IMG/VR virus record: IMGVR_UViG_3300042196_000013
Location: 1 to 31,765 of that record
DNA length: 31,765 nt
Strand: one strand, 5' to 3'
Origin: a virus
Lineage: Duplodnaviria > Caudoviricetes
The position numbers and the translations under genes are program-made. Of this stretch, positions 2,944 through 31,414 are shown piece by piece. The notes below the pieces were generated by a model that made no database searches, was not told the DNA's origin, and worked only from the letters and a program-made list of their open reading frames with translations. Each line of letters begins with the position of its first letter. Within the stretch, counting starts at the first letter, position 1.

Positions 2944-3387
2944 ATGCATGATTCTAAAGTTTGTTTTAAGTGCGAAGCCGAGAAGCCATTGTCTGAGTTT
3001 TATAAACATCAGGCTATGGCTGACGGGCATCTGAATAAATGCATTTCATGCACAAAGAAAGACGTGCATGAGCATAGAGAAAATAATCTAGATAAGATCA
3101 GAGAGTATGACCGGACGCGAGCAAAGCATCCCGAAAGGGCCGCTGCCGCGAGTAGGATTAGTACAAGGTGGAGGATGGAAGATAAGCGCAGGACAAGGTG
3201 CCATAACGCCGTGTCCCGAGCTGTACGGTCTGGAGCTATCGAAGTTAAACCATGCATTATCTGCGGCAACGGTAGATCGTACGCTCACCATGAAAGCTAT
3301 GACAGGCCGTTGGATGTGGTTTTCTATTGCCAGGTTCACCACAAAGAAAGGCATAAGCAGATGGCTATTGAAGGTATAGAGCCCTGA
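2944..3387 (+). CDS. zinc-finger/HNH-like endonuclease
   Basis: CxxC...KPLSEFYK...CxxC N-terminus and CxxCG...AHHESYDRPLDVVFYCQVHH C-terminus; more AT-rich than neighbours. Confidence 0.6.
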   Translation: MHDSKVCFKCEAEKPLSEFYKHQAMADGHLNKCISCTKKDVHEHRENNLDKIREYDRTRAKHPERAAAASRISTRWRMEDKRRTRCHNAVSRAVRSGAIEVKPCIICGNGRSYAHHESYDRPLDVVFYCQVHHKERHKQMAIEGIEP

Positions 3388-17768: not shown

Positions 17769-18427
17769 GTGCGGTTCCTCAAATAATCGCCAAGATGCCC
17801 TTGAAACGTTTTGTAGCCGCAATGGCCCATTTTGATCTCGGGGTCAACCCAAACCTGCCCACCCATGTCCGTCCATCGCTTGCAGAATGAGTAATCTTCG
17901 CCCATCTTGTGTTTACCGATGCGGTAATCCGCAAACAAGGCCCATGCGCGCTGGTTTGGAGCGTTCTCGCTGTAGTATTCGCTGTCCGGGTACTGGTCAA
18001 CCATCTTTTCCAGCAAATCACGTGACAAGCGCATAAATCCAGCCGGAACGCCGGCCACTTCCAACAGGCCATCCACCGCTTGCAACTGCGGCTTGTCCAG
18101 CCACTTCACGCAGTAATTGATCGGGTCTTTGCGCTGCGGGTAGATCCCGGCCACAAAGTCAACTGGCGCATCGATCAGCTTGACCAGCGCCCCGGCCTCC
18201 CATGACACATCCGAATCGATGAATATTAATTGCTCCGCATCTGACGCAAGGAATTGCGCCACGATCAAAGCTCGTGCATCAGCAATGAGTGCGTTGCCGC
18301 ACTCGTCATGCACGGTCGCCACATCGCCGCGTGAGGCGAGGGTAAATAAATCCGTCATCAGGGAGCGGAACGTCCCCAGGTGTATCGTTCCCGTATAAGC
18401 GGGGATGGCGATCATGACCTTTTTCAT
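17765..18427 (-). CDS. GT-A fold (GT2-like) glycosyltransferase
   Basis: VMIAIPAY start, LIFIDSD (DxD motif), GFMRLSR, GEDYSFCKRW...GHCG. Confidence 0.8.
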   Translation of the reverse strand: MKKVMIAIPAYTGTIHLGTFRSLMTDLFTLASRGDVATVHDECGNALIADARALIVAQFLASDAEQLIFIDSDVSWEAGALVKLIDAPVDFVAGIYPQRKDPINYCVKWLDKPQLQAVDGLLEVAGVPAGFMRLSRDLLEKMVDQYPDSEYYSENAPNQRAWALFADYRIGKHKMGEDYSFCKRWTDMGGQVWVDPEIKMGHCGYKTFQGHLGDYLRNRT

Positions 18428-18939
18428 TTAATCCTCGATGGTTTGATGGCTTGCAAGCCGAAGAACAGGATGTGTTCGGTCTTGTCCAGGTGGATCAGGT
18501 CGAAATCGGCCTGATAGATGCGCCGAAAGTCGGTCATGGGCGTTTTGCCGACGTTTTCGTAATTCGGCTGGCTCAGGAATGTCAAACTTTCTGACGGAAT
18601 GACTCGCCGATGCGACGGGTCGCCATAGGCCCACGGGCTTTTATCGTTCGGCACTGAGCAGAGCAGATAACCGCCCGGGTTCAATACGCGCCAGAAGTCG
18701 GAGAACTGTGCGAAGAAAAACGCCGCATCCCCCTGCGTGCCTAAATGCTCTAGCACTTCATAACAATGGATTTCATCAGCTGAATCATCCTCGAACGGCA
18801 AAGGATCATTCAGGTCATGAATCACATCAGGTGAATGGCAAGGCTCAATATCCACAGTGACAAGGCCGTCCCACTCGGAACGGCCTTGTACGGTGAGCTT
18901 CTTTTCACGGGACAGCCCGCAGCCAAGAAGCAGTTGCAT
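18424..18939 (-). CDS. class I SAM-dependent methyltransferase (small-molecule/glycan type)
   Basis: LLLGCG motif I, VTVDI, HDLNDPLPFEDDSADEI, EVLEHL, WRVLNPGG, DPSH. Confidence 0.8.
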   Translation of the reverse strand: MQLLLGCGLSREKKLTVQGRSEWDGLVTVDIEPCHSPDVIHDLNDPLPFEDDSADEIHCYEVLEHLGTQGDAAFFFAQFSDFWRVLNPGGYLLCSVPNDKSPWAYGDPSHRRVIPSESLTFLSQPNYENVGKTPMTDFRRIYQADFDLIHLDKTEHILFFGLQAIKPSRIK

Positions 18940-28318: not shown

Positions 28319-28341
28319 AAAAGCCCCGCGAATGCGAGGCT
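28319..28341 (-). terminator. terminator-like hairpin before small terminase
   Basis: AGCCTCGC-ATTC-GCGGGGCT-TTT on the minus strand. Confidence 0.6.
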
Positions 28342-28349
28342 GTAAATGC

Positions 28350-28379
28350 AAAAAGCCCGACTCGTTAGAATCAGGCTTT
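28350..28379 (-). terminator. terminator-like hairpin downstream of late promoter (tR'-like)
   Basis: AAAGCCTGATTC-TAAC-GAGTCGGGCTTTTT on the minus strand. Confidence 0.65.
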
Positions 28380-28569: not shown

Positions 28570-28899
28570 TCACACCAACCCCCTTCTATCTGCCATCAGC
28601 AACAAATTATCCAGCGCGTCAAGGTAAGCCGCTTCAATATCGCGCATCCGATACACCGCATGCAGCCATTTGTGATGTATGGCGCAGGATTGACTAGGCG
28701 GCAGGCTGTCTATCATCGCGTCCAAGGTAATAGCGTTGTCGGTGTCCATGTCGTCGCACATGTACTCAAACGCATCAGCGCAGGCCGATCCTCCTGACGC
28801 AATGCACAGGCTCTTAGCTGGATAGCCGAGTTTATGGGATGGTTGGCGCATGTACTGCACCCAGTTGGATAGGTGTTCCTCAAGTCGCGCCAGGTCCAT
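28570..28899 (-). CDS. antitermination protein Q-like late regulator
   Basis: L.NWVQYMR...LGYP...LDAMIDSLP...AI pattern; GGGGAG RBS; position upstream of promoter/terminators and terminase. Confidence 0.6.
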   Translation of the reverse strand: MDLARLEEHLSNWVQYMRQPSHKLGYPAKSLCIASGGSACADAFEYMCDDMDTDNAITLDAMIDSLPPSQSCAIHHKWLHAVYRMRDIEAAYLDALDNLLLMADRRGLV

Positions 28900-28930
28900 G
28901 CAGTCTCCCCTTGTAGTTATCCTTGGCCAT

Positions 28931-29086
28931 CTATTTACAGCAATCCGCGCAATGCCACTGATACCGCCGCCCGTTGTCCTTCGGCACCTCAACTCCCCCG
29001 GCTCTGGGCTTTGATTGCCGGCAGCGCATGCACATGCGTTGACCGTGCTGTATTGGCGGGCGGTTGTGGCGTTCATCAAAGATCAT
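28931..29086 (-). CDS. 51-aa zinc-ribbon protein MIFDERHNRPPIQHGQRMCMRCRQSK...WHCADCCK (not in ORF track)
   Basis: Hand translation; two CxxC pairs; GGGGAG RBS. Confidence 0.65.
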   Translation of the reverse strand: MIFDERHNRPPIQHGQRMCMRCRQSKPRAGGVEVPKDNGRRYQWHCADCCK

Positions 29087-29150
29087 TGCTCCCCCGTAGG
29101 TGTGTTTGTTGGGATAGGCACCTGTTTAGGTGCCTACTCTTAGTTGTGCG

Positions 29151-29843
29151 TCAAAGCAGCGCCTCCTGCACCGCCGCCGGTTTCTCAGCCGGCGGCAGCA
29201 GTTGGCCCTGCGCCTGTGCCCGCGAAATCCGCTCGCAGGCAATGTCAAAGTATTTGCGCTCGCGTTCCACGCCGTAGAAAGCCCGCCCTTGCATCGCGCA
29301 CGCCACGCCCGTTGTCCCGCTGCCCATAAACGGGTCGCAAACCGTGTCGGCTTCAGGCACCAAGCCAAGGCACCACGCCATCAGTTGCAGCGGCTTCTGG
29401 GTCGGGTGCTCGGTTCCGCCGTCAGCTTGCAGCGCCACCCGGTTCAAGGTGTAGGCGCGCATCGGAAATTCAAAGCTCGTCCACGCCAGTTCGCCGTCGC
29501 TCATCGTCAGCCCTCGCTGGCCTTTGTCCCAAAACAGCCAGCCCTTTGTCGGGTGCGGCAGCTTGTCGGTGAAGTAATTGCCACCCCACACAATCTGGCC
29601 GTCGCTCTTGTAGCGCAGCAGTTCAAAAACAAGGCGCTCCGGCGTCTCGTTGTCCCATCCAAGGAAGTCGTGGGCCTTTCTGTTGTGCTTCGGGTTGCGG
29701 TTCGTGCTTTGCTTCTGCCCGTCAATGCCTATGCCATAGGGCGGGTCGGTCAGCACCAGCGCCACATGCGGCAGCAACGGCAAAACCTCGCGGCAGTCCC
29801 CGTGCCACAACTCTGCATCCCCTATCACTACTTTTTCCGCCAC
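29151..29843 (-). CDS. DNA methyltransferase, N6-adenine/N4-cytosine, beta class (GTG start 29843)
   Basis: LWHGDC, TDPPYG (motif IV) before HPTQKP and DPFMGSGTTG (motif I); AAAGGA RBS. Confidence 0.92.
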   Translation of the reverse strand: MAEKVVIGDAELWHGDCREVLPLLPHVALVLTDPPYGIGIDGQKQSTNRNPKHNRKAHDFLGWDNETPERLVFELLRYKSDGQIVWGGNYFTDKLPHPTKGWLFWDKGQRGLTMSDGELAWTSFEFPMRAYTLNRVALQADGGTEHPTQKPLQLMAWCLGLVPEADTVCDPFMGSGTTGVACAMQGRAFYGVERERKYFDIACERISRAQAQGQLLPPAEKPAAVQEALL

Positions 29844-29893
29844 TTCGTTTCCTTTCTTCGCCGTACCGCCAGCGCCGACTTTTACCGTTTGAC

Positions 29894-29962
29894 GCACAAC
29901 CCGTCATTGCAAGGGACCGTGCGCAAGAAGCCGCGCCCGGCCCCTGAATTCAGGCGTTGGGC
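29894..29962 (+). repeat. attC site 1 (69 bp)
   Basis: GCACAAC-CCGTC-ATTGCAAGGGAC...GCCCCTGAAT-TCAGGC-GTTGGGC. Confidence 0.8.
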
Positions 29963-29988
29963 CAATAACAAACCAAGGAGGCTTTGCC

Positions 29989-30213
29989 ATGAAGCAATAC
30001 AAAGACATCAATCATGATTCTAGCGTTTCAGCATACGAATACACCGATACCAGCATCCGCGTTCAATTCAAAACTGGGAAAATATATGAATACCCAGAAT
30101 CTAAAATTGGTTCTACACACTTAAACAACATGAAGCGTCTAGCCGAATCAGGCGATGGTCTAAACGCCTATATCATGAACAACGATGCAGTCAAAAATGG
30201 TTTTTCTCGCTAA
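29989..30213 (+). CDS. small KTSC-like protein, AT-rich cassette gene
   Basis: SSVSAYEY...IRVQFKTGKIYEY...MKRLAESGDGLNAYI; AAGGAGG RBS shortly after the GTTGGGC core site. Confidence 0.7.
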   Translation: MKQYKDINHDSSVSAYEYTDTSIRVQFKTGKIYEYPESKIGSTHLNNMKRLAESGDGLNAYIMNNDAVKNGFSR

Positions 30214-30377
30214 AACCTTGGCACACGTTGCACAGTTGTTATGCCCTCCATAAACACAGTTTTTTCGCTATCAACAATCGCAGTTACATGCGGGTGGCAG
30301 TTATCGCGCAGCCATTGCATCAGTGGTTTTGTTAAAGCATCAAGTTCAGCTAGGTTTTCGTCTGTCAGTTCCATCAT
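30210..30377 (-). CDS. 55-aa phage-type protein MMELTDENLAELDALTKPLMQWLRDNCHPHVTAIVDSE... (not in ORF track)
   Basis: Hand translation; GAAAGG RBS right after attC2; its stop overlaps the stop of the convergent + gene. Confidence 0.7.
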   Translation of the reverse strand: MMELTDENLAELDALTKPLMQWLRDNCHPHVTAIVDSEKTVFMEGITTVQRVPRF

Positions 30378-30389
30378 GTACCTTTCTCG

Positions 30390-30461
30390 GGCTAACCCTT
30401 CGTTCCAGGGGACAGTCCAAAAGCTTCGCTTTTGTCCTCCCCCTGAACTTGAACGTTATGC
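30390..30461 (+). repeat. attC site 2 (72 bp)
   Basis: GGCTAAC-CCTTC-GTT[C]CAGGGG...CCCCTGAAC-TTGAAC-GTTATGC. Confidence 0.85.
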
Positions 30462-30626
30462 ACTGCGGTGAGGGGCCACCGGTCGCCCGGCTTCCTGGTT
30501 GCGTTCGTATTCCTCACACTGCGCCCAGTAGATGTTCCAGGAGTGCGCGAGAAACGGATCATTCAGCGGCGGCAGTTTCCACCCTTTTTCGGTTGCCAAC
30601 TGGTACAGCCTTAAGTCATATTGCAT
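30456..30626 (-). CDS. 56-aa hypothetical cassette protein (MQYDLRLYQLATEKGW...)
   Basis: GAGGAG RBS; TAA stop lies inside the core site of attC2. Confidence 0.7.
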   Translation of the reverse strand: MQYDLRLYQLATEKGWKLPPLNDPFLAHSWNIYWAQCEEYERNQEAGRPVAPHRSA

Positions 30627-30647
30627 ATCGCTCTCCTCTGGTTCCGT

Positions 30648-30708
30648 GCATAACAAATCAGTCAAGCGGGACTGCGCTATGCGCAGCCCCTTACCTCATG
30701 CGTTAGAG
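30648..30708 (+). repeat. attC site 3 (61 bp)
   Basis: GCATAAC-AAATCA-GT[C]AAG[C]GGG[A]CTGCGC-TAT-GCGCAG-CCCCTTAC-CTCATGC-GTTAGAG. Confidence 0.88.
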
Positions 30709-30923
30709 CGCATCCAGTTGTTGCGGAATCCCCTTGCCCACGATGCCGTATAAACGAACGTCAGCGCCAGAATCCCCCACTGCTCGGCAACGAACGCCGA
30801 GTAGAACCAGAACGGTTGTCCGGCCAACCCGAACACGCTCGCCCACTTGCGCCAGCCCTCCCGCTGGTCATTCGCCAGCCAGATCGCAACGCACCCTGTT
30901 ACCGCTATCGCTAGTTGTTCCAC
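30696..30923 (-). CDS. 75-aa multi-pass membrane protein, cassette gene
   Basis: About three hydrophobic segments; GLAGQPFWFY..EQWG; AAAGGA RBS, GTG start; ends inside attC3. Confidence 0.75.
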   Translation of the reverse strand: MEQLAIAVTGCVAIWLANDQREGWRKWASVFGLAGQPFWFYSAFVAEQWGILALTFVYTASWARGFRNNWMRSNA

Positions 30924-30951
30924 TGCATTCCTTTCTTCGTTGGTGCTGGCG

Positions 30952-31008
30952 CTCTAACCCGGCAGTCCAGCGGACGCCGTGCCGGCGCCGCTGACTTCTG
31001 CGTTATGC
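30952..31008 (+). repeat. attC site 4 (57 bp)
   Basis: CTCTAAC-CCGGC-AGT[C]CAGCGG[A]CGCCG-TGC-CGGCG-CCGCTG-ACT-TCTGC-GTTATGC, with canonical unpaired bases. Confidence 0.9.
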
Positions 31009-31009
31009 C

Positions 31010-31414
31010 TCACGCAATCATCTCCAGCGATCCCCCGCTGATATGCGCACGATGCTTTTTAAGCGGCTCAGAGCGATTAACGAAGTCCTCCGAGTAGTAC
31101 GCCCTACCTTCAGCCGGTTTAACCGCGCCATAGCCGCCCCACATCGCCACAGGGCTATTCTCCAACACTTCATCCGGGTTGAATTGCGACACGCGCCAGT
31201 ATTTCACCAGCGCGGCCCCGCGTTCAGCGCGCAATTTGCCCTCGTTGCGCAACAGGCTGATGTCGTTGAACAGCGTATCCTCGCGTACGCCCATGTCGGT
31301 CATCTGCGCGATGATCTCGTAGCGTGTCAGGCCTTGGGCCAGTTCCAGAATGCGGGCATGACGGGCTTTCTTGGCCACGGCCAGCTCGTCTTTGCGTTCT
31401 TGGGTGAAGCTCAT
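31010..31414 (-). CDS. hypothetical nin-region protein, possible winged HTH
   Basis: 134 aa; ATGA overlap with the upstream gene; ILELAQGLTRYEI...TLFNDISLLRNEGKL. Confidence 0.65.
   Translation of the reverse strand: MSFTQERKDELAVAKKARHARILELAQGLTRYEIIAQMTDMGVREDTLFNDISLLRNEGKLRAERGAALVKYWRVSQFNPDEVLENSPVAMWGGYGAVKPAEGRAYYSEDFVNRSEPLKKHRAHISGGSLEMIA

Follow-up and report, generated by a model that had tools for sequence, protein, structure and literature searches.

Genes and sites of the array

The window, by which the whole stretch of 31,765 bases analysed is meant, comprises the entire virus record and is 88% complete. Profile matches over the whole window place a P22-like portal, coat protein and terminase on the minus strand and ERF, YqaJ and SSB on the plus strand, and the phage is P22-like, with Betaproteobacteria as its probable host group. 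Between the end of ninG (PHROG 171, E 2e-8, a 33-aa end fragment) and a 109-aa gene in the Q position lies an array of cassettes with four attC sites (Table 1). A PAPS-reductase-like gene is found at the contig start (1-805), and a methyltransferase-domain gene among the capsid genes (18424-18939) is also annotated in the phage record MW202573.

Table 1. Positions of the array features and flanking genes in the window
Feature	Position	Strand	Remarks
Downstream genes: 51-aa Cys-rich protein and 109-aa probable Q antiterminator	28570..29086	-	followed by terminator-like hairpins (28322-28379), then terminase
Orphan attI, Betaproteobacterial type	29112..29149	+	accessory site, palindrome 29115-29136, L box, 5-nt spacer, R box; crossover between 29143 and 29144
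Cassette 1	29144..29956		813 bp; two ends complementary over 13 bp; start follows a different attC in L192
N4/N6 DNA methyltransferase (MTase), 230 aa, inverted cassette gene	29151..29843	-	Pfam N6_N4_Mtase, E 3e-20; 80 viral homolog loci
attC1	29894-29962	+ (top strand)	71.3 bits, bacterial covariance model
74-aa gene, classical orientation	29989..30213	+	39% GC; weak KTSC-like match; shares cassette 2 (29957-30455) with the 55-aa gene
55-aa inverted gene	30210..30377	-	convergent with the 74-aa gene; homologs 50-73%
attC2	30390-30461	+	48.9 bits
56-aa inverted gene of cassette 3 (30456-30702)	30456..30626	-	two homologs at 78% and 65%
attC3	30648-30708	+	26.7 bits
75-aa inverted membrane-protein-like gene of cassette 4 (30703-31002)	30696..30923	-	PHROG 22312/2421; 6 homolog loci
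attC4	30952-31008	+	35.8 bits; one of a family of near-identical sites that is frequent in viral contigs
Upstream nin-region genes: ninG end, 84 aa, 134 aa	31010..31765	-	134-aa stop abuts the last core

The units extend from TT to G, have complementary ends and occur in varied neighbourhoods, as gene cassettes do; the ends pair over 13, 9 and 10 bp in cassettes 1, 3 and 4 and imperfectly in cassette 2. Integron cassettes are by definition promoterless genes on the attC top strand that are read from Pc, and the classical gene ends before its attC. Here four of the five genes (MTase, 55, 56 and 75 aa) lie on the bottom, minus strand, as stated in the preliminary description, and the fifth (74 aa) is on the plus strand. 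The MTase start had to be moved from 29897: the GTG at 29843 is most likely the start codon, giving an SD-led gene of 230 aa in agreement with its homologs. The starts are 50, 12, 21 and 28 nt from R'', which qualifies their description as just after an attC, and the ribosome binding site claimed for each is weak in the 55-aa gene.

Three of the genes had been described as ending at or inside the next core site, and their ends can be given more exactly. The MTase stop is located 1 nt past the core 29143-29149, and the stop of the 56-aa gene is the TTA inside the core 30455-30461, so that the stop codon is supplied by the site. The 75-aa gene reads past the crossover by 7 nt and takes its final codons from attC3. 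At no core does the 55-aa gene end; it overlaps the stop of the 74-aa gene within cassette 2. A reading of the 75- and 55-aa genes as shadow ORFs was ruled out by an excess of differences at third codon positions. Only the 75-aa frame of all six is open in the window and in all six homologs, differences falling mostly at third positions, and for the 55-aa gene 31 of 51 differences from its homolog in L362 are at third codon positions.

The convergent 74-aa and 55-aa genes make up a single conserved two-gene cassette, which the preliminary description does not mention; the pair is found again, flanked by attC sites, in L361-L364, where it has two distinct sequences. The mismatched ends of cassette 2 may mean that it is fixed or composite. 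L361-L364 are AT-rich phage arrays with several convergent cassettes of one classical and one inverted gene each, and where the first gene in a viral locus is classical, a convergent gene comes next in 5 of 10 cases. For the 74-aa protein, 9 of 12 homologs give a KTSC match, and this is below threshold; a search of solved structures gave no useful match for this protein, and its atlas clusters are unnamed.

For the MTase, 72 homolog loci were counted after 4 short and 4 duplicate loci had been dropped. An attC was detected in the inverted position in 19 of them and in the other polarity in none (0/1440 in shuffles). Since no attC was detected before the gene in the other 53, by a detector that overlooks some visible sites, the family also lives as ordinary phage genes. 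As an orphan MTase the protein plausibly protects against restriction, to judge from its family. Before the MTase start, at 29858-29890, contigs of run X2 pile up to a summed depth of >7000 with loose ends on both sides; this is probably a short word common to abundant unrelated DNA.

Strand of the attC sites and orientation of the genes

attC sites are R''-L''-L'-R' inverted repeats of 57-141 bp with conserved AAC/GTT, and the four sites of the window, 57-72 bp long, have this build. With a covariance model of 32 bacterial attC sites, the window was scanned on both strands. All four sites were obtained on the plus strand (E 1e-18 to 1e-5), the next match in the window having E 0.28, and at the four places no minus-strand match appeared up to E 10. 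A search of Rfam gave 0 matches. The plus strand assumed in the preliminary description is right. In the model alignments the unpaired bases are on the left arm of this strand, in accordance with the polarity of extrahelical bases; they had been given as C and A, but the first one of attC1 is a G.

The polarity of the model itself is anchored threefold: bacterial arrays come out as classical at 250 of 330 sites, the strands of attC and intI show the textbook geometry in G118, G121, G006 and G072, and in phage TJE1 the top strand according to the model is the opposite of the bottom-strand oligo of Qi et al., with weak matches (E 0.02-0.03). The minus strand as attC top strand was ruled out by the model scores on plus only, the bacterial gene orientation and the TJE1 oligo strand.

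Look-alike attC sites were collected by pattern in 66 and 18 viral and in 78, 15 and 97 bacterial stretches, the bacterial records being mostly Rhodocyclales, Thiobacillus, Gallionellaceae and Burkholderiales. Orientation was tabulated with a structure-based detector, which is strict (two of the four window sites found, none in 10 shuffles), and with genes from our own simple caller; the loci are interrelated and, being deduplicated by sequence only, not phylogenetically independent. Among 271 viral sites, 223 are inverted, 9 classical and 39 uncalled, compared with 32 inverted, 250 classical and 48 uncalled among 330 bacterial ones. For a single attC pattern, 18 of 19 sites in viruses and 13 of 77 in bacteria have an SD-led reverse ORF starting beside them; for the other patterns the counts are 49/59 and 3/92, respectively. 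These figures exclude 1 viral and 5 and 5 bacterial sites that lay less than 200 nt from the end of their locus. In 86 loci selected and oriented through protein homology there were 101 attC model hits, of which 99 are antisense to the query gene; the remaining two belong to a divergent operon and are inverted too.

These orientation tables, together with the genes being real, bear out the proposal of a phage-associated cassette class whose gene is antisense to the attC top strand. The mRNA-like strand therefore equals the recombinogenic bottom strand, and the suggested change of the recombinogenic strand relative to transcription is supported. With at least two attC sites (four) and no intI nearby, the window contains a CALIN, which in addition has an orphan attI and inverted cassettes and is typical of a phage class that is widespread. 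No further array was found elsewhere in the window by covariance model and structure-based detector. The gene ends fit the sites: of 214 inverted viral genes beside a crossover, 87 continue past it, 62 end in the core TTA, 47 within 12 nt and 18 farther away.

The chance capture of a piece of a host chromosomal integron, whose reversed cassettes would have their own promoters, is extremely unlikely and largely refuted by the orientation tables. The attC and attI sites are indeed of host type, and about 1 in 10 bacterial cassettes is inverted, some of these being toxin-antitoxin pairs. In the viral contigs, however, 223 of 232 called sites are inverted rather than 1 in 10, the stretches between R'' and the gene starts offer neither room nor a consensus match for promoters, and the cargo is phage-type.

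Fifteen genome hits of the attC4 family give phage-like counts (25 inverted, 8 classical, 2 uncalled), and many of them may be prophages or misbinned contigs. Inverted arrays with this family are seen in bins labelled Mycobacterium, Saccharibacteria, Omnitrophota and Peribacteria (L249-L263), which may be misbinned phage. L188 is a locus with divergent phage operons that contain two inverted arrays, one on each strand.

The orphan attI, crossover points and recombinase

As in a complete integron, an attI, which the preliminary description does not mention, lies at the head of the array: 29112-29149 matches the array end in the provirus G072 with equal spacing to the GTT. In pattern scans, motif and spacing were found at array ends of 5 and then of 20 viral loci (15 distinct sites). 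All 20 loci begin, behind the site, with an inverted gene; attC hits in matching orientation are present at 17, and no IntI was found within 3 kb in any of the 20. Of 12 bacterial hits, six have attC hits; four of the six precede a classical gene and one adjoins an intI fragment. A matrix of the 15 viral sites scores the window with 35.0 bits, which is partly circular as the pattern was derived from the window. Applied to 40 regions upstream of intI, the same matrix gives more than 12 bits at the expected position in 9, with a maximum of 35.0 as against 8.7 at most in shuffles. Because the viral matrix scores the attI position beside bacterial intI, the window site is a host-type attI. As a terminator-like hairpin its palindrome scores weakly, and on the plus strand only. 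In one locus (L442 of G123, about 3350-3376) a second attI-type site stands inside an array directly after an attC, the R' box of that attC serving also as accessory site of the attI. attI itself may travel as a short cassette, and if so, this could explain orphan attI sites.

At the other end of the array, the stop of the 134-aa gene directly behind the last core (31002-31012) resembles that of a cassette gene, but its other side is without attC and no matching R'' was found right of this core. The gene may be an old fixed cassette, or the place may be the right half of the original attI. A search for relatives of the 134-aa gene found none, so that an empty site without array could not be seen.

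Shared phage segments that end in attC have 18 of 21 left and 13 of 18 right ends at most 6 nt from G|TT and none at R''. In relatives the start of the MTase cassette follows different attC sites, identity breaking off at the GTT. Near-identical MTase and 75-aa cassettes without the flanking DNA of this phage were found in other samples, one contig piece beginning at 29143. Phages thus exchange units at G|TT, and the junction counts fit recombination of the attC bottom strand by IntI. Since the shared segments end at the normal G|TT crossover, the polarity of recombination is classical and only the gene is flipped; in inverted cassettes the attC accordingly precedes its own gene in the transcript.

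The contig, 88% complete, gave no match to the tyrosine recombinase profile PF00589, and neither an intI beside the array, as in complete integrons, nor one on the attC strand, as in inverted-integrase integrons, is present in the window. In a search of 117 viral records, covering the set outside L002-L006 and the MTase loci without model hits, TIGR02249 is above its cut-off in two (G006, G072), and in 1 of the 15 records at least 90% complete. Both full IntI genes end inverted arrays, as does a truncated one in G010; in all three the intI comes after attI, co-directional with the inverted genes and opposite to the attC top strand. A split IntI in G045 goes with a classical array. In G072 (C1:1-1040 and 39400-43343) the array with attI and full IntI is at the end of the early-left operon, the usual place of a phage integrase, and a second inverted array with an orphan attI lies at the other end.

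The simplest and most likely reading is that a host IntI acts in trans on the array. That a different phage-encoded recombinase serves it, from the missing part of the genome or from co-infecting phages, is very unlikely. The contig is incomplete and some phages do carry IntI; however, phage IntI sits directly after attI, a place filled here by the 51-aa gene, and nothing above the IntI cut-off was found in 14 of 15 near-complete records.

The array could alternatively be a frozen relic, which lost its own phage IntI beside attI and changes only by homologous recombination or slippage. A truncated IntI adjoins the inverted array in G010, L169 looks recombined within the MTase gene, the phage encodes ERF, a YqaJ exonuclease and SSB, and the ends of cassette 2 are mismatched. 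On the other hand, the ends of attI and of three cassettes are intact and matched, the junctions lie exactly at G|TT, the MTase and 75-aa cassettes turn up elsewhere in near-identical form without this backbone (with the piece from 29143), and orphan attI sites are found intact beside many different, unrelated genes. On balance we regard the relic as improbable.

Expression, exchange and relation to known integrons

We consider it likely that the array is an integrase-less integron platform in the nin-to-late-gene operon, with the cassettes read by the phage transcript and a host IntI acting in trans. In lambdoid gene order the rightward early transcript runs on to the late-gene activator, and the origin is upstream of the nin region. 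The minus-strand cassette genes are co-directional with ninG and the late genes, and helicase, nin genes, ninG and terminase follow in the same order in the relative MW202573. The co-directionality with a ninG-to-Q operon proposed in the preliminary description stands as to strand and ninG, whereas the Q label comes from position and an atlas lead (0.89) and is a lead only; Pfam and PHROG gave no match for 28570-28899. Before attI, a simple scan, which can miss promoters, gave no sigma-70 consensus on the plus strand that would resemble Pc. Pieces of the MTase cassette occur in the RNA libraries X19 and X20, and one of the 75-aa cassette in X19; these contig pieces are strandless and possibly from DNA. 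Run X1 matches at 100% and could be the sample of origin.

Expression of the cassettes from the phage early transcript would replace Pc. Promoterless cassettes would be read by the rightward transcript, whose way to the Q-like gene necessarily leads through the array, and therefore every cassette position would be expressed and no silent tail would exist. Excision of cassettes and insertion at attI would be carried out by an IntI-family tyrosine recombinase, usually the chromosomal one of the host in trans. Incoming classical cassettes from the host would be antisense and rarely kept, which could account for the orientation bias. An attC bottom strand on the lagging template favours excision (Loot 2017, PMC5371416).

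If the origin, which is outside the contig, is upstream of the nin region, the flip would put the attC bottom strand on that template and so favour excision, and the flipped genes would stay co-directional with the replication fork.

Phage attC clusters have already been published; the present counts show inversion to be the rule among viral contigs. Qi et al. 2023 (PMC9892861) described 17 phage CALINs and IntI1 activity on five sites, and like the window these are attC clusters without intI that have a DNA methyltransferase as cargo. One of their records, MW202573, is related to the window phage (TerL 60%, coat 63%) and is inverted according to the covariance model, with three significant attC hits on the minus and the annotated genes on the plus strand. 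The published cluster of TJE1, whose sites were tested, is in contrast classical by the model. Antisense-to-attC genes and an orphan attI in lytic phages are not mentioned in the text of that paper, the figures being outside this comparison. In the literature, with limited coverage of subscription papers, no report on antisense cassette genes in phages was found.

Chromosomal integrons consist of intI, attI, Pc and attC cassettes (Cury 2016, PMC4889954; Loot 2017, PMC5371416). With those of Betaproteobacteria the phage arrays share the attC families, the attI family, the G|TT crossover and, where an intI is present, its geometry. The window differs by lacking intI and a Pc match and by genes on the bottom strand that point toward attI. 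The newest phage cassette is last in the transcript, and the site often provides a gene with its stop or final codons. Inverted-integrase integrons (PMC13323075) likewise depart from the usual strand relations; in these, according to the parts of that work considered, intI is on the attC strand, whereas in phage arrays the relation of intI and attC is regular and the cassette genes are flipped. Cassettes of attG sites (bioRxiv 10.1101/2022.09.11.507474) use a resident promoter instead of Pc, as the phage cassettes presumably do. In contrast to what that preprint describes, the window has a genuine homolog of attI as its insertion point, and inversion is part of the build of the cassettes instead of resulting from insertion in either direction.

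A large viral pool of opposite build means that phages use integron recombination for their own accessory genes, and the inverted layout probably lets them swap these within an operon that is already read. This provides a concrete mechanism for the mosaic nin region of such phages and offers an explanation for some reversed cassettes in bacterial arrays. Because one gene family occurs both as a plain phage gene and as a cassette, a testable handle on cassette origin is obtained. More tentatively, and with some doubt, lambdoid-type phages of Betaproteobacteria might carry only attI and inverted cassettes, borrow the host IntI, use an essential operon to express every cassette and exchange units with the array of the host, in which inverted cassettes would be silent behind Pc. 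If this mirror image of the host system were true, phage operons would be one source of cassettes made from ordinary genes, and of the two genes in a convergent cassette like cassette 2, one would serve in the phage and the other in the host array.

Exchange with hosts is suggested by the bacterial integrons G118 and G121, both of which have inverted genes of phage type close to attI. In G121 this is a PHROG 799 methyltransferase with an attC4-type site. G118 (L416:13000-18600) is a Rhodocyclaceae chromosomal integron in which classical and inverted phage-type cassettes alternate and which also contains several toxin-antitoxin pairs.
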